Below, in pieces: positions 1 to 9,589 of a stretch of 9,589 nt of DNA. The notes under the pieces were generated by a model. It worked only from the letters and a program-made list of their open reading frames with translations, had not been told where the DNA came from and made no database searches. A program made the translations under genes and the position numbers. This DNA is from a virus (lineage: Duplodnaviria; Heunggongvirae; Uroviricota; Caudoviricetes): the IMG/VR virus record IMGVR_UViG_2563366982_000003; one strand, written 5' to 3'. The first letter of the stretch is position 1; every line of letters starts with the position of its first letter.

Positions 1-131
1 TTCACCCATCGCGTCATTGTGGAAAGGCCGACATCCATAGCGCTGGCTGCATCTGCCACGGTGTAATTCTGGTCAACGACCAGTTGAGCGGATTCGCGTT
101 TAAACTCTGCGCTGAAATTTCTTTTTTTCAT
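1..131 (-). CDS. IS911-like transposase OrfA (InsN-like), N-terminal part, truncated by the window edge
   Basis: ATG at 131-129 (minus strand); translation [43 protein letters not shown]..., in a different frame from the annotated 100..798 ORF tail. Recognised from memory of IS911 orfA. Confidence 0.7.
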
Positions 132-203
132 TATGGCACCTGTGTTGTTCTGAGGTGAGCATATCACCTCTGTTCAGGTGGCCAAATTCAGTAAACCACT
201 TCA
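1..203 (-). mobile_element. IS3-family (IS911-like) insertion sequence, partial: left terminal repeat and 5' part of orfA; element continues beyond the window start
   Basis: Minus-strand sequence from 203 downward reads TGAAGTGGTTTACTGAATTTGGCCACCTGAACAGAGGTGATATGCTCACCTCAGAACAACACAGGTGCCATA-ATG, an IS3-family-type end (TG...) followed about 70 nt later by an ORF beginning [43 protein letters not shown], which I recognise as IS911 OrfA (HTH N-terminus). Boundary at 203 inferred from the TGAAGTGG terminus. Not checked against ISfinder. Confidence 0.75.
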
Positions 204-798
204 CACTGCACAGTGATGCTGTCCGGCGATCAATTATCTGGTGCAATACCACCTGCTCGTTTTTCGTCTCCCGCTGAACGCCTATTTCATCCAGGACCAG
301 CAAATCAACCCCGCAAAGCTCCTGTAAAAATTTTTCCCCGGATTTGCCGTTGTCGTAACTGTCATGCAACACGCTCATGACGTCAGACACGGTGACGATA
401 ATCACGCTGCGCCCCTTCACCATCAGCCGGTTGCCCATCGCCGCTGCAAGGTGATTTTTCCCGGTGCCGGTTTTACCGCTGAACACAAAATTCGTGCACC
501 CGGTCATCAGTTCGTCAGCTATGGATTTGGCCTGGCTCAGCGCGTATTTTTGCCCGTCGTTCTGCACCTGATAATTTGCAAACGAGCATTTGCTGTGCAG
601 AGGCTGGATGCCCGAACGATTCAGGATTTTTTCCACCCGCAACTGGCGATTCTGGCGGTTAATCTCCTCGCTGCGTTTTCGTCCTTCAGCAAGTTGCCAT
701 TCCCGCCACTCCTCCACCGTCCGGTACGGTGGAACCGACCCCTGTGGTGCAAGTCTGCGAATACGTTCAAGAACCCCAACTGCCGCAATGTTTTTCAT
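100..798 (-). CDS. DnaC-like replicative helicase loader (AAA+ ATPase); native reading frame ends near 204, the last ~35 codons (100-203) are IS-derived read-through, so the gene is 3'-truncated by the IS911-like insertion
   Basis: 232-aa ORF with Walker A ([15 protein letters not shown]) and Walker B (DLLVLDEIG) and a DnaC-like layout (...[17 protein letters not shown]...); SD-like GGGGGTG upstream of the ATG at 798; the C-terminal tail [15 protein letters not shown]... is encoded by the IS terminal repeat. DnaC homologs carry about 45 more residues after the DRR(S/T) motif. Confidence 0.75.
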
Positions 799-804
799 GA
801 CACG

Positions 805-1767
805 TCACCCCCTGAATCCCGGCGGTATTTCAGTGTCCGGTTCAGAAATGTGATTCACGCAACGCTGCGCAGGCGAACGCCCCAGGCGGATAACCAGTTC
901 ATCCCATTTTTCCCGGAGTTTTGCCGGACTCATGATGTTTTTTACCCAGAACGAATCCCGCTGGAGACGCCCAAACATTTCACAAATTTGTCTGTGAGTT
1001 CTGCCATCCAGCATCCGCATTGTGCGAACGTCATTGGCCCATGCTGTCCAGTTGGGTTCTTTCGGTCTAGTGATCTCGCCATCATAGCTGGCCGCCTGCT
1101 CGTAAAGACTCACGATTCGTCCCCAGATCCACTGTGCGCACACCAAATCTTCCTGACTTCCCCACTGGCGTTTTTTCGCACTGAACACAACCGCGTCAGG
1201 GTGTCGGGTTAAAAAATCCTGTTCAGCCGTCTGCGGGTCCGGTTGCGAAGCGTCCGGACAAGAAGATCTTTTATCTGACGGATCAGGTTTTAATACTGAC
1301 GGATCGGGGTCAATCATCGCCCCCCTAATCGGCAGTTTTTTATCAACAGTTGATCCATCAAAATTTGACGGGTCAACCGTTGAGGGGTCAATATTTGACG
1401 GGTCAACTGTTAACGGGTCATTTTTTGCCGGGCTAATTTTTCTTTTCGGTTTATATGACTCACGCGCCGCCGCCGCAGCTGCTTCGAGTTTTTCCACATT
1501 AAGCCGATAGATATTGCTTACATTACGCCCACCGACCTTACGCTCTTCCTTCGTCAGCCAGCCCTCTTTCGCCAGTTCTGCAATAGCCGATTTCACTGTG
1601 GATTCACTTCTTGCACCGATCTGACGCCGGATAGTTTCAATGGCAGGCCATGACACACCCTCGTCATTGCTGTAGTCTGCAAGACGGGCCATAACCGCCA
1701 CCCTGGATAAGATCATGCCGGTGAAGGCGCACCCTTCCCAGACAAGACCATGAAGCTTGCTGCTCAT
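805..1767 (-). CDS. Phage replication initiation protein (lambda O-like in function; N-terminal winged-HTH, internal iteron-encoded peptide repeats, C-terminal DnaT/YdaU-like domain)
   Basis: Long minus-strand ORF (track 805..1782, GTG start); I prefer the ATG at 1767, preceded by GGGGG. N-terminus LVWEGCAFTGMILSRVAVMARLADYSNDEGVSWPAIETIRRQIGARSESTVKSAIAELAKEGWL is typical of replication-initiator HTH domains. Internal DPSNIDPSTVDPSNFDGSTVD peptide repeat is encoded by DNA iterons. Stop lies 6 nt upstream of the dnaC-like ATG, the O-then-loader order of lambdoid replication modules. Confidence 0.7.
   Translation of the reverse strand: MSSKLHGLVWEGCAFTGMILSRVAVMARLADYSNDEGVSWPAIETIRRQIGARSESTVKSAIAELAKEGWLTKEERKVGGRNVSNIYRLNVEKLEAAAAAARESYKPKRKISPAKNDPLTVDPSNIDPSTVDPSNFDGSTVDKKLPIRGAMIDPDPSVLKPDPSDKRSSCPDASQPDPQTAEQDFLTRHPDAVVFSAKKRQWGSQEDLVCAQWIWGRIVSLYEQAASYDGEITRPKEPNWTAWANDVRTMRMLDGRTHRQICEMFGRLQRDSFWVKNIMSPAKLREKWDELVIRLGRSPAQRCVNHISEPDTEIPPGFRG
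1350..1439. repeat. Six tandem 15-bp iterons (consensus TTGAcGGGTCAAy-nn) inside the initiator gene: candidate phage origin of replication
   Basis: Plus-strand units: ttgatccatcaaaat / ttgacgggtcaaccg / ttgaggggtcaatat / ttgacgggtcaactg / ttaacgggtcatttt / ttgccgggctaattt (1350-1439). Each unit contains an internal dyad (TTGAC...GTCAA). Placement inside the initiator gene parallels the lambda ori iterons within O. Confidence 0.6.
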
Positions 1768-2514: not shown

Positions 2515-2611
2515 ACCTTCCTCGGTTTAGTGTTTTTTTGCGAGTTTAGTGTTTAATAAACCATTAAGTCAAGTATTTGCTTGTTTAGTGATTACTAAAG
2601 ATAATTACCAC
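2515..2611. promoter_or_regulatory. Divergent promoter/operator region between ydaS-like (minus) and paaR2-like (plus): repeated heptamers GTTTAGT/GTTTAAT and palindromes, candidate -35/-10 elements for both directions
   Basis: GTTTAGT at 2525-2531, 2544-2550, 2583-2589; GTTTAAT at 2551-2557 with complement AATAAAC at 2555-2561; perfect dyad TTTAGT-GATT-ACTAAA at 2584-2599. Candidate plus-strand promoter: -35 TTGCTT (2577-2582), 17-bp spacer, -10 GATAAT (2600-2605). Candidate minus-strand promoter: -35 TTGACT (complement of 2567-2572), -10 TAAACT (complement of 2543-2548). A further TTTAATAAAC copy lies at 2491-2500, inside the first codons of ydaS. Confidence 0.55.
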
Positions 2612-2983
2612 ATGCAAAAAAAAGAAATTCGCCGTTTACGTCTCAAGGAGTGGTTTAAAGATAAAACTCTGCCACCCAAAGAGAAGAGCTACCTATCTCA
2701 ACTAATGAGTGGGAGAGCCTCGTTTGGAGAAAAGGCTGCCAGAAGAATAGAGCAAACATACGGGATGCCGGAAGGGTATCTGGATGCGGAATACGCAGAA
2801 CAACCGGGGGTTTCTCCACCACATGCAGGGTTAACGTCTAATCAACTGGAATTATTGCAGATTTTTTCAGCCTTCCCTGAGGATGAGCAACGCCAGATAA
2901 TCAGCGAGTTAAAGCAGAAAAAAGAATCAATGGAAGATCTCATAGCGAGATGGATTGCGGCGCAAAAATGCCGCCGCGCCTGA
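2612..2983 (+). CDS. paaR2: HTH (XRE/cI-type) transcriptional regulator of the three-component ParE toxin-antitoxin module; occupies the cI position of the prophage switch (PaaR2-like)
   Basis: 123-aa ORF from ATG 2612 (the track's 2549 start is a GTG lying inside the operator repeats, with no SD); HTH region LSQLMSGRASFGEKAARRIEQTYGMPEGYLD; no peptidase S24 domain; directly upstream of the antitoxin/toxin pair. Symbol from memory of the E. coli O157:H7 paaR2-paaA2-parE2 system; the paralogous paaR1 module cannot be excluded without alignment. Confidence 0.6.
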   Translation: MQKKEIRRLRLKEWFKDKTLPPKEKSYLSQLMSGRASFGEKAARRIEQTYGMPEGYLDAEYAEQPGVSPPHAGLTSNQLELLQIFSAFPEDEQRQIISELKQKKESMEDLIARWIAAQKCRRA

Positions 2984-3003
2984 GTTATAAAACCGGAGGA
3001 AAC

Positions 3004-3195
3004 ATGAATAGAGCCCTTTCACCAATGGTTTCTGAATTTGAAACCATTGAACAAGAAAACAGTTACAACGAATGGCTGCGTGCGAAAGTAGCAACGAGCC
3101 TTGCAGATCCGCGCCCAGCAATTCCCCATGACGAAGTTGAGCGCAGAATGGCAGAACGCTTTGCTAAGATGCGTAAGGAACGGAGCAAGCAGTAA
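3004..3195 (+). CDS. paaA2: Small antitoxin of a ParE-family toxin (PaaA2-like, 63 aa)
   Basis: 63-aa ORF MNRALSPMVSEFETIEQENSYNEWLRAKVATSLADPRPAIPHDEVERRMAERFAKMRKERSKQ from ATG 3004 with SD GGAGGA at 2995-3000; stop TAA at 3193-3195, 1 nt before the toxin ATG. Size and operon position match the PaaA2 antitoxin as I recall it from the literature. Confidence 0.7.
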   Translation: MNRALSPMVSEFETIEQENSYNEWLRAKVATSLADPRPAIPHDEVERRMAERFAKMRKERSKQ

Positions 3196-3196
3196 A

Positions 3197-3475
3197 ATGT
3201 TACCCGTGTTATGGCTTGAAAGCGCAGATACCGACCTAGATGATATAACTAGTTATATTGCTCGTTTCGACATAGATGCGGCTGAACGCTTATGGCAGCG
3301 ATTAAGGGGTTGTGTGCTGCCGTTATCCGAACATCCGTATTTATACCCACCAAGCGACAGAGTACCTGGCTTGCGTGAGATTGTAGCCCACCCTAACTAT
3401 ATAATTCTATACCGCGTAACAACATCAAGCGTTGAAGTAGTAAACGTGATCCACGCAAGACGCCAGTTTCCCTAA
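3197..3475 (+). CDS. parE2: ParE/RelE-superfamily toxin (ParE2-like)
   Basis: 92-aa ORF from ATG 3197: MLPVLWLESADTDLDDITSYIARFDIDAAERLWQRLRGCVLPLSEHPYLYPPSDRVPGLREIVAHPNYIILYRVTTSSVEVVNVIHARRQFP, with the characteristic ParE C-terminal pattern (...YRV...V.V..H.RR..). The track's 3101 start overlaps the antitoxin and is rejected. Confidence 0.8.
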   Translation: MLPVLWLESADTDLDDITSYIARFDIDAAERLWQRLRGCVLPLSEHPYLYPPSDRVPGLREIVAHPNYIILYRVTTSSVEVVNVIHARRQFP

Positions 3476-4791: not shown

Positions 4792-4848
4792 TTTCTGGTG
4801 ACGTTTGGCGGTATCAGTTTTACTCCGTGACTGCTCTGCCGCCCTTTT
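4792..4848 (+). ncRNA. dicF: DicF small regulatory RNA (ftsZ-targeting sRNA of Qin-type prophages), including its 3' stem and U-tract
   Basis: Sequence TTTCTGGTGACGTTTGGCGGTATCAGTTTTACTCCGTGACTGCTCUGCCGCCC + TTTTT matches my memory of the 53-nt DicF RNA; GGCGG (4807-4811) / CCGCC (4839-4843) pairing followed by a T-run gives a rho-independent 3' end; lies 180 nt upstream of the dicB ATG as in the Qin dicB operon. Exact 5' end not determinable from sequence. Confidence 0.75.
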
Positions 4849-5493: not shown

Positions 5494-6055
5494 ATGAGCA
5501 CTGATAAAGAAGAATTTGCGCTATATTGCGAAGCAAAAAATGACAAAGTCAGAAAACGTCTGGGAATTAAAGGTGGTTTTTACTGGACTACAGCAAAAAA
5601 ATTATCTGTTGCCATCTCCCGCTGCATTACCGCAATGGATGACAACGATTATGATGAAGACGACTTTAAAAAACCCGTTCGCGTCCATTTACCCGTTGTG
5701 AATGACCTTCCACCTGAAGGCGTGTTTGATACCGAATTCTGCAACCGATACGAAAAAGGCGGGGAAGATGGCATTACAATGGTATTTATCGCGCCCTCTC
5801 CCTCCGTGCAGGAGAAACCAGCCAGTACTGACAATACCAACGTCAACGGCGAAGACATGACGGAGATTGAGGAGAATATGCTCCTGCCGGTTTCTGGTCA
5901 GGAGCTGCCCATTCGCTGGCTTGCGCAACACAGCAGCGAAAAACCAGTAACGCACGTTGCACGGGAAGAACTTCAGGCATTACATATAGCACGGGCGGAA
6001 GAACTGCCGGCTGTTACTGCCCTGGCCATTTCTCACAAAACAAAGCTGCTCGACC
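5494..6055 (+). pseudogene. RecE-like (exodeoxyribonuclease VIII family) prophage exonuclease gene, N-terminal fragment, interrupted by an IS21-family insertion
   Basis: ORF from ATG 5494 (SD GAGG 5482-5485); the track ORF 5494..6105 reads 50 nt into the IS terminal repeat before a stop. Deleting 6056-8193 (IS plus one repeat copy) rejoins this frame exactly to the frame open from 8193 to the window end (...HKTKLLD|[24 protein letters not shown]...). Assignment to the RecE family is from recalled similarity of the N-terminal region and the synteny after dicB/ydfD. Confidence 0.6.
6049..6055. repeat. Left copy of the 7-bp direct repeat (CTCGACC) flanking the IS21-family element: putative target-site duplication
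   Basis: CTCGACC at 6049-6055 immediately before the IS terminus TGTCA; identical heptamer at 8187-8193 immediately after the other terminus. Confidence 0.55.
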
Positions 6056-6115
6056 TGTCAACGCCACGATGTTTGACCGTTATTTGCCATTTTCATGCCC
6101 GCTAAGATACTTTCG

Positions 6116-8085
<1,970 letters not shown>

Positions 8086-8193: not shown

Positions 8194-9589
8194 CGCTGGA
8201 GATTCGCGACCTTCACAAACTGGTACGCGACACTGACAAAGTTTTCCCTAATCCCGGTAATTCAGACCTGGGACTGATAACTGCTTTTTTCGAGGCATAC
8301 CTGGACGCTGATTACACTGATCGGGGTCTGCTGACAAAAGAGTGGATGAAAGGAAATCGTGTTTCGCGTATCACCCGTACGGCTTCCGGTGCAAATGCCG
8401 GTGGCGGGAACAAAACCGATCGCAATCCGAATTTAGTACACACCTTCGATGCGCTGGATGTGGAGATTGCAGCAGCCACACTTCCGATGGATTTTAATAT
8501 TTATGAAATTCCGGGCAGCGTTTATCGTCGCGCAAAAGAAATCGTCCTGAAAAAAGAAAGTCCGTTCAGGGAATGGTCCGCAGCACTTCGCGCAACCCCT
8601 GGTATCCTGGACTATTCCCGCGCAGCTATTTTTGCACTTATCCGAAGCGCCCACCCTGAGTTTTATCACTACCCGGGGCGCCTTCAGGGGTATATCAATG
8701 CCAACCTGACAGAAACTGATCACGAGAATCCCACAGCTGAAACGCTCATGGCTGCCCGGCATACACCGGAAAAAGATATCCTGGAAGAAATTAACGGCGG
8801 ACTGGCTGCTGAGTGCAAAACAGAAGAAGAAAAAAATGATGAAGATAACCCGCAACCATCTGGCGCAATGGCAGATGAACAGGCAACGGCTGAAACAATG
8901 GCAGCGGATACAGTTGAACATCATCAGGACCCGCAGCCGCTGGATGACAAGTCACAGGTAAAAGTTACCGCTGACGAAGTAAACAAAATTATGCAGGCAG
9001 CCAATATCAGCCAGCCTGACGCCGATAAGTTGCTTGCTGCCTCTCGCGGAGAATTTGTTGCAGGGATTAGCGACCCGAATGATCCGAAATGGGTAAAGGG
9101 GATTGAAACCCGCGATTCTGTAAACCAGAACCAGCAAGAATCGGAACAGAACGACCAGAAAGCGGAACAAAACAGCCCAAATGCGTTACAAAACGAGCCA
9201 GAAACGAAACAACCTGAACCAGTAGTGCAACAGGAACCGGAAAAGATCTGCACCGCCTGCGGTCAGACCGGCGGCGGCAACTGCCCTGATTGTGGCGCGG
9301 TGATGGGCGACGCAACATACCAGGAAACATTCGATGAAGAGAATCAGGTTGAAGTTCAGGAAAATGATCCGAAGGAAATGGAAGGCGCTGAACATCCACA
9401 CAAGGAGAATGCTGGCAGCGCTCAGGATCACGCCAGCGATAGTGAAACTGGCGAGACGGCAGATCCCTTAATTACGGTGAACGGTCATCATGTTATCACA
9501 TCCACCAGCAGGACGTGTGACCATCTAATGATCGACCTTGAAACCATGGGAAAAAATCCTGATGCCCCGATCATCTCAATAGGTGCAAT
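8187..9589 (+). pseudogene. RecE-like prophage exonuclease gene, C-terminal continuation after the IS21 insertion (open to the window end): Q/E-rich low-complexity linker, CxxC-x10-CxxC zinc-ribbon motif, start of a DEDD (DnaQ-like) 3'-5' exonuclease motif
   Basis: One frame is stop-free from 8091 to 9589 and is absent from the ORF track because it has no stop in the window. Translation ...[51 protein letters not shown]...; acidic/Gln-rich segment about 9100-9240; [16 protein letters not shown] at 9249-9296; [10 protein letters not shown] (Exo I-like D-x-E) at 9522-9551. All minus-strand ORFs listed for 8433-9431 are antisense to this frame. Confidence 0.6.

Follow-up and report, generated by a model that had tools for sequence, protein, structure and literature searches.

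In phage lambda, the replication origin lies within the gene of its own initiator, O, as a series of iterons followed by an AT-rich region, and in-frame deletions in this origin leave the O protein functional (PMC6022878). The iterons of lambdoid phages are each an inverted repeat and hence have hairpin potential, and their copy number varies among close relatives sharing one initiator type, as found in Shiga toxin (Stx) phages (PMC7466680). The present analysis deals with an array of 15-base-pair (bp) units located inside the O-like replication initiator gene of a prophage carried by a DNA stretch of 9,589 nucleotides (IMG/VR virus record IMGVR_UViG_2563366982_000003, Caudoviricetes), this whole stretch being referred to as the window. 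The window is E. coli DNA and includes the region for immunity and replication of a prophage of the lambdoid, Rac-like kind; its positions 700-2600 are 100% identical in E. coli strains such as ATCC 25922, and at least 80% of this segment occurs in ca. 1270 of 5426 complete E. coli genomes. Comparison of orthologous genes from many bacterial genera indicates that conservation of the repeats bears on the DNA and not on the peptide, and because of this the array is very probably the phage origin: we predict, with a probability of ca. 0.8, that it is the part of the prophage replication origin to which the initiator binds and that, as in lambda, this origin is embedded in the gene of the initiator.

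As in ori-lambda, the predicted origin lies inside the initiator gene and comprises several iterons with internal dyads followed by a less stable segment (PMC6022878, PMC7466680); the encoded peptide tolerates in-frame length changes, and the initiator and O are homologous in their C-terminal domains (35% identity). The window differs from lambda in that the N-terminal domain of its initiator matches Pfam HTH_36 and not Phage_rep_O, in that its units have another sequence and abut at a 15-bp period whereas the four lambda iterons are of 18-19 bp and joined by A-tracts, and in that the partner of the initiator is a DnaC/IstB-like AAA+ loader instead of a protein of the lambda P type. In addition, two extra iteron-like boxes carrying GATC are present, and where lambda has a 39-bp region of high AT content, the candidate unwinding segment of the window has only 68% AT. 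The comparison thus supports a lambda-type origin-in-initiator plan with another DNA-binding domain and another iteron. A preliminary description of the locus had already proposed such an arrangement, which agrees with the location of the array in the linker, the C-terminal domain homologous to that of lambda O, the adjoining least stable segment and the helicase loader gene coming next.

The Stx phages 933W and P27, which have a lambda-type O and six iterons, resemble the window in the variable number of their iterons, seen here as steps of five residues, but their initiators have true lambda O N-terminal domains and their iterons are of the lambda type; the window initiator matches the C-terminal domain only.

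The K-12 Rac prophage (oriJ, ydaS-ydaT-ydaU-ydaV) has the same gene order, namely a Cro-like YdaS, a CII-like YdaT, the initiator and a DnaC-like loader, and the C-terminal tail of YdaU (...IPPGFRG) is common to the window initiator. In the Rac prophage as in that of the window, a DnaC-like loader gene follows the initiator gene. Homology to YdaU was considered and rejected: BLASTP aligns the last 19 residues only, 13 of which are identical, and YdaU, otherwise unrelated, matches DUF1376 while the window protein does not. Because the N-terminal domain and the linker of YdaU are dissimilar, the predicted window origin is not oriJ and the literature on oriJ does not apply to it. The label "YdaU/O-like" used in the preliminary description therefore does not hold, YdaU being a DUF1376 protein that has the C-terminal tail alone in common.

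Iteron plasmids and P1 oriR combine a winged-helix Rep protein with tandem iterons, an adjacent unwinding region and Dam sites in the origin; the plasmid iterons are usually of 17-22 bp, non-coding and located outside rep, and copy number is controlled by handcuffing. The window follows the same logic of initiator, iterons and unwinding region, including Dam sites, but nothing in it suggests a role of handcuffing in copy-number control.

A 15-bp array inside the initiator gene

Tandem Repeats Finder detected a period-15 tandem array of 5.2 copies at 1343-1420 and 1364-1441, together with a period-30 super-repeat in the same array (82-84% matches). A repeat search of the window found five in-register copies spaced by exactly 15 bp, as well as a 33-nucleotide inverted repeat in the array, centred on 1378. 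When the window was scanned with TTGACGGGTCAA, allowing up to two mismatches, eight matches were obtained where 1.0 was expected, a number reached by none of 200 shuffled sequences; they correspond to five array positions (1350, 1365, 1380, 1395 and 1410), two of which score on both strands, and to a single site outside the array, at 6050. These data confirm that the 15-bp array is real and non-random. Six units had been counted in the preliminary description, and the period of 15 was recovered with four good units and two degenerate ones (1410 and 1425) built on the core TTGAC-NN-GTCAA, which has an internal dyad. On the minus strand, the array is read in frame as part of the initiator open reading frame, residues 122-142 of the product being DPSNIDPSTVDPSNFDGSTVD; the list of open reading frames contains no other frame of at least 40 residues overlapping 1213-1749. 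The coordinates of the array, of its units and of the other features discussed below are given in Table 1.

Table 1. Features of the replication and immunity region, in window coordinates
Feature	Position	Strand	Basis or remark
DnaC-like helicase loader gene, directly downstream of the initiator gene	100..798	-	Pfam IstB_IS21, Bac_DnaA; PHROG 50 'DnaC-like helicase loader', E 3e-61
O-like replication initiator gene, 320 residues from ATG at 1767	805..1767	-	Open reading frame list, PHROG 391, Pfam HTH_36
C-terminal tail, residues 300-320, ...VNHISEPDTEIPPGFRG	808..870	-	phmmer against PDB; BLASTP against YdaU
C-terminal helical domain, residues 181-297, homologous to the lambda O C-terminal domain	877..1227	-	tblastn; pLDDT 80-91
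Predicted disordered inter-domain linker coding region, residues 106-180	1228..1452	-	pLDDT; third-position entropy
Conserved DNA downstream of the iterons (gene direction), GC-rich at its end	1237..1342	.	47-locus alignment, mean third-position entropy 0.77
Least stable 40-bp duplex in the replication genes, candidate unwinding element	1260..1299	.	Nearest-neighbour free energy
GATC box 2, GATCCGTCAG, 21 bp from box 1	1275..1284	-	Sequence, repeat family, alignment
GATC box 1, GATCCGTCAG, iteron-like (GAyCCrTCA), Dam site	1296..1305	-	Conserved in 47/47 loci
Partial iteron-like site TTGACCCC	1313-1306	-	Within 1237..1342
Iteron array, 15-bp head-to-tail units, core T-TGA-C-SS-G-TCA-A	1343..1441	.	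Tandem Repeats Finder, repeat search, motif scan, orthologue conservation
Partial unit	1343
Unit TTGATCCATCAA	1350 (start)
Unit TTGACGGGTCAA	1365 (start)
Unit TTGAGGGGTCAA	1380 (start)
Unit TTGACGGGTCAA	1395 (start)
Unit TTAACGGGTCAT	1410 (start)
Unit TTGCCGGGCTAA	1425 (start)
N-terminal winged-helix DNA-binding domain, residues 1-105, presumed iteron reader	1453..1767	-	AlphaFold2, Foldseek, Pfam
CII/YdaT-like gene	1790-2215	-
Cro/YdaS-like gene	2212-2514	-
Regulator gene (PHROG 5736), then PaaA2 antitoxin and ParE toxin genes	2549-3475	+	Divergent from the Cro/YdaS-like gene

Conservation of the repeats as DNA

A protein search returned 914 relatives of the initiator, and 80 loci were taken, with one genome per species and 36-68% amino acid identity, in Edwardsiella, Erwinia, Morganella, Pantoea, Providencia, Proteus, Yersinia, Enterobacter, Kluyvera and other genera. 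Codon usage was compared in ca. 76 orthologous loci from many enterobacterial genera, the units being defined on the peptide and the codons used for a given amino acid at a unit position being compared with its codons in the rest of these genes; third-position entropy was computed on a codon alignment of 47 non-redundant loci.

An array with a period of five codons occurs at the same place in every full-length orthologue. The initiators fall into two N-domain subfamilies, group A (MSSKLHG..., including the window) and group B (MSTKLTG... or MSVKLS...). Group A units read for instance AAT ATT GAC CCC TCA or ACG GTT GAG GGG TCA, and the group B unit reads AAA TCT GAC nnn TCA. In group B, serine is encoded at position 5 by TCA in 321 of 354 cases (17% elsewhere) and at position 2 by TCT in 266 of 329 (10% elsewhere), and lysine at position 1 is always AAA (228/228, against 62% elsewhere). 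The same holds for group A, in which TCA accounts for 24 of the 27 serines at position 5 (12% elsewhere) while position 2 is exclusively GTT for valine (20/20; 27% elsewhere) and ATT for isoleucine (24/24; 24% elsewhere), and position 1 exclusively AAT for asparagine (16/16; 37% elsewhere). In the group B unit, each of the three nucleotides of the fourth codon is variable, the residue encoded being Pro, Ala, Thr, Gly, Val or Arg; this codon is spacer-like, and the pattern is unlike the product of peptide selection or of recent transfer. In group A, this codon alternates between Pro (CCC/CCG) and Gly (GGG/GGA), which corresponds to a flip of the central bases of the palindrome.

Mean third-position entropy is 1.53 bits over the N-terminal domain, then drops to 0.85 and rises again to 1.68 (Mann-Whitney p = 1.4e-14), synonymous sites being saturated in the flanking domains. 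The stretch at 0.85 bits covers alignment columns 99-246, that is residues ca. 100-177 of the window protein, from the repeats onward. Across the constrained DNA, invariant and fully variable positions alternate, which argues for selection on the DNA instead of recent transfer. The codon and entropy comparisons together show purifying selection acting, as DNA, on the array and on ca. 110 bp downstream of it. Conservation limited to the peptide, which the preliminary description had set against its own reading, is thus not what the orthologues display: wobble positions are kept across genera, and one codon per unit is free.

The initiators of close E. coli relatives are 320, 315, 310 or 305 residues long, with the gaps inside the repeat. 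Four relatives that are 86-92% identical to the window protein (P0003, P0005, P0015 and P0018) differ from it by one to three whole units of five residues, or 15 bp (alignment columns 115-150). From these five-residue steps within the repeat it follows that iteron copy number is polymorphic in the population.

Architecture of the initiator

The initiator frame extends without a stop codon as far back as a GTG at 1782, giving a 325-residue open reading frame (805-1782), and the ATG at 1767 is the probable start. The protein is 99% identical to a 320-residue protein cluster with 3163 member sequences. It matches PHROG 391, "replication initiation O-like" (E 2e-115), and also PHROG 277, "O-like". 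In the N-terminal domain, Pfam HTH_36 is found at residues 30-76 of the 325-residue frame, and a Pfam scan with E values up to 0.01 gave no Phage_rep_O match there but only HTH_36 and a weak DnaD_N. AlphaFold2 predicts in this domain helices at residues 3-15, 20-32, 43-50, 55-67 and 91-105 and a beta-hairpin wing at 71-89, with a predicted local distance difference test (pLDDT) score of 76-92. Foldseek relates the domain to winged-helix regulators of the MarR/ArsR/PadR type, and the whole model gave generic winged-helix matches only. According to the model, the N-terminal domain is thus a winged helix of the sort that binds palindromes as dimers.

The pLDDT score drops below 50 at residues 109-162 and 164-179, and the DNA-constrained region coincides with this predicted disordered linker. 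The array had been described as encoding a linker between N- and C-terminal domains, and it does fall in the disordered segment (residues 109-179) that separates the winged helix from the C-terminal domain. Because the predicted origin lies in the region coding for the disordered linker, the peptide DPSxx would be largely a by-product of the origin DNA.

In tblastn searches against the O genes of lambda, phi80 and Stx phages, residues 158-305 aligned with 35-39% identity (E ~1e-18), lambda O itself giving 35% at 1e-18, so that homology to the C-terminal domain of lambda O is found; matches to lambda-type O genes are confined to the C-terminal half of the initiator. The tail VNHISEPDTEIPPGFRG matches the C-terminal 21 residues of E. 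coli DnaT almost exactly (residues 159-179, with identity at most aligned positions; phmmer, PDB 2ru8, 6aep and 9zbt), and a sequence search of the PDB with the initiator matched this DnaT-like tail only. The tail may thus mimic the host in contacting the helicase-loading machinery. No role is given to the tail in a 2026 paper on the preprimosome (PMC13377028).

Constrained DNA beyond the array

The constrained DNA extends over ca. 1237-1441. The interval 1350-1439 proposed in the preliminary description therefore contains the array but falls short by ca. 110 bp of the end of the constraint at ca. 1237. This additional part is nearly identical between groups A and B. It contains the two GATC boxes, which across loci read GATCCrTCAG and have GAyCCrTCA in common with the iteron core. 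At box 1, the GATC is kept in all 47 loci and the codons are GAT in 47/47, CCG in 45/47, TCA in 41/41 and GTA in 42/43; at box 2, the GATC is kept in 42/47. In the window, box 2 is followed by AGATCT at 1264-1269, and GATC occurs at positions 1265, 1281 and 1302. The initiator gene of phiP27 (locus L083, 469-524) has three boxes (GATCCrCAAG...AAAACAT, period 22-24) instead of two, so that box number varies too.

Just downstream of the array in the direction of the gene, the 1260-1299 segment, which contains box 2, consists of 68% AT and has a duplex free energy of -46.9 kcal/mol, the window mean being -55.1 (standard deviation 4.0). Within 100-2600, lower stability is found only in the intergenic promoter region 2483-2592. 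A scan for DnaA boxes gave one match, TTTTCCACA at 1490-1498 (+), ca. 50 bp from the array, which is the frequency expected by chance and whose codons are not conserved in the orthologues; the integration host factor (IHF) consensus gave no match. No sigma-70-like promoter, terminator or Rfam family was detected in 1150-1550.

These features might reflect a two-part origin, in which the iterons have diverged with the N-domain subfamily while a nearly identical segment of ca. 100 bp carrying the GATC boxes would serve as a Dam/SeqA-sensitive unwinding or loading site; the island would perhaps also be a recombination joint that pairs one module with several C-terminal domains, one of them with a tail copying DnaT. 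We put this proposal forward as tentative and consider it rather doubtful as a whole.

Iteron type, N-terminal domain and modularity

A TGA-N4-TCA motif at a 15-bp period is common to both groups, and the iteron consensus varies together with the N-domain subfamily. Group A initiators have the recognition helix (K/R)SxxTV(K/S)(S/A)AI and the wing RKxGGRNxSN with the iteron AnnrTTGAsssnTCA, and group B initiators the helix GxSTVRTAI and the wing RRxGNRNASN with the iteron AAATCTGACnCnTCA. This co-variation fits the N-terminal domain as the predicted reader of the array. In the preliminary description the array was held to be the specificity determinant of the replicon type, a view that fits the tracking of N-domain subfamily by iteron variant, an association amounting to a single phylogenetic split.

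The module formed by the N-terminal domain and the array occurs in cultured temperate phages, namely the Shigella serotype-converting phages SfII and SfIV, Citrobacter phiNP, phiP27, Yersinia YeP1-3 and several Klebsiella prophage-derived phages. These resemble the window in their HTH_36 N-terminal domain (46-55% identity), their 15-bp array and their GATC boxes, but their iteron is that of group B (AAATCTGACnCnTCA or a close variant), and several of them have other C-terminal domains and partner genes. The array was found in the three enteric-type phage genes inspected (SfIV, phiP27 and EKP1) and is absent from a distant Vibrio phage relative. Neither the origin nor these repeats are mentioned in the SfIV genome paper (PMC3851460).

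Comparison of loci L019-L077, L082 and L083 with window positions 1228-1767 revealed that the N-terminal domain, array and boxes are fused to at least three types of C-terminal domain: lambda-O-like, Phg_2220_C, and one or more without a Pfam match (phiP27, EKP1). The downstream partner genes differ as well: the window and phiP27 have a DnaC-like loader, EKP1 has a toprim-domain protein, and in SfIV no loader is evident. Similarity between the modules stops directly after the conserved DNA; because the junction falls right there, the alignments suggest that the origin island is a recombination joint between initiator modules.

Proposed mode of action and alternative explanations

From the arrangement of these elements we infer how initiator binding, unwinding, helicase recruitment and origin firing would take place. 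Transcription of the early operon (Cro-like gene, CII/YdaT-like gene, initiator and DnaC-like loader) would provide the initiator, whose winged-helix N-terminal domain, probably as dimers, would bind the dyad TTGAC-NN-GTCAA cores every 15 bp and may also bind the two outlying GATC-carrying GAyCCrTCA boxes. The resulting nucleoprotein complex would destabilise the adjacent AT-richer segment at ca. 1260-1299, and the lambda-O-like C-terminal domain with its DnaT-like tail would then bring in the host DnaB via the phage DnaC-like loader.

Several observations count against an origin at this site. The candidate unwinding segment, at 68% AT, is not strikingly AT-rich, and the clustering of GATC within the window alone is not unusual (P ~0.2-0.5), so that for these boxes only conservation across loci is informative. 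The co-variation of iteron and N-terminal domain comes down to one deep phylogenetic split and thus to a single independent contrast. As RNA, the array would form a very stable hairpin (z = -7.4 in the window, median -4 in the orthologues). The window prophage carries an IS21 insertion and may be defective. Finally, a literature search, which did not extend to older subscription papers, returned no binding or origin-activity experiments for this initiator family. Within the same limits, keyword searches on oriJ/Rac, lambdoid iterons and SfII/SfIV replication gave no description of this iteron, and searches with the exact iteron and GATC-box sequences gave unrelated primer matches only.

The alternative that survives best, although we regard it as unlikely, is a DNA or RNA element other than an origin: either an mRNA hairpin acting on the translation or stability of the initiator-loader message, or an operator array used for autoregulation or by another protein. 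Winged-helix proteins are often autoregulators, and the folding of the array as RNA is far above that of shuffled sequence. However, conservation bears on the bases present at fixed positions, a 3-nucleotide spacer being left free, and not on pairing, and hairpin potential is shared by the lambdoid iterons, each of which is an inverted repeat (PMC7466680). Moreover, no promoter-like or terminator-like site and no Rfam match is found in 1150-1550, and a position in the linker of an O-like initiator, beside the least stable segment, is that of the origin plan.

Even less probable is a homogenisation by recombination, in which the linker would be a recently exchanged mosaic junction devoid of selection on its DNA. 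The joining of N-terminal domain and linker to at least three C-terminal domains, with similarity ending after the conserved DNA, is what such exchange would leave, but recombination would conserve all positions equally, whereas a fixed 15-bp register of invariant and variable positions is observed; unit numbers also differ between loci, and synonymous sites are saturated in the N-terminal domain of these loci. The mosaic junction would more plausibly result from the conservation of the origin DNA.

That the array is merely a low-complexity peptide linker (DPSxx) that expands and shrinks by replication slippage, its DNA repeat having no function of its own, can practically be dismissed: although disorder is predicted for the encoded segment, unit number changes in five-residue steps and DPS-like motifs also occur outside the array, synonymous codons are nearly invariant across genera, in genes whose flanking domains show saturation at synonymous sites, and the serine codons of group B differ by position (TCT at 2, TCA at 5) with one residue left free, which is the opposite of what a peptide linker predicts.

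Other features of the prophage

The regulator, antitoxin and toxin genes at 2549-3475 form a module which we take to resemble paaR2-paaA2-parE2 of an O157:H7 cryptic prophage. A full-length gene for the DicF antisense RNA is located at 4793-4844 (+) (Rfam RF00039, 76.7 bits, E 5e-16). At 5494-8085, IS21-type istA (6913-8085) and istB (6116-6916) genes adjoin an open reading frame of 203 residues with the C-terminal domain of exonuclease VIII (RecE), and the prophage is probably disrupted in this region. An imperfect 21-bp tandem repeat in four copies (AACGAGCCAGAAACGGAACAA) occurs at 9129-9212, in a region to which no gene was assigned.

Implications

These data leave the textbook picture of lambdoid replication unchanged. 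They provide a concrete and testable origin, together with an iteron consensus, for a widespread and uncharacterised class of lambdoid replication modules, and the predicted origin would explain the linker as a mosaic junction between initiator modules. The initiator gene would thereby offer a clean natural case of dual coding, in which a function of the DNA dictates the sequence of a protein linker.

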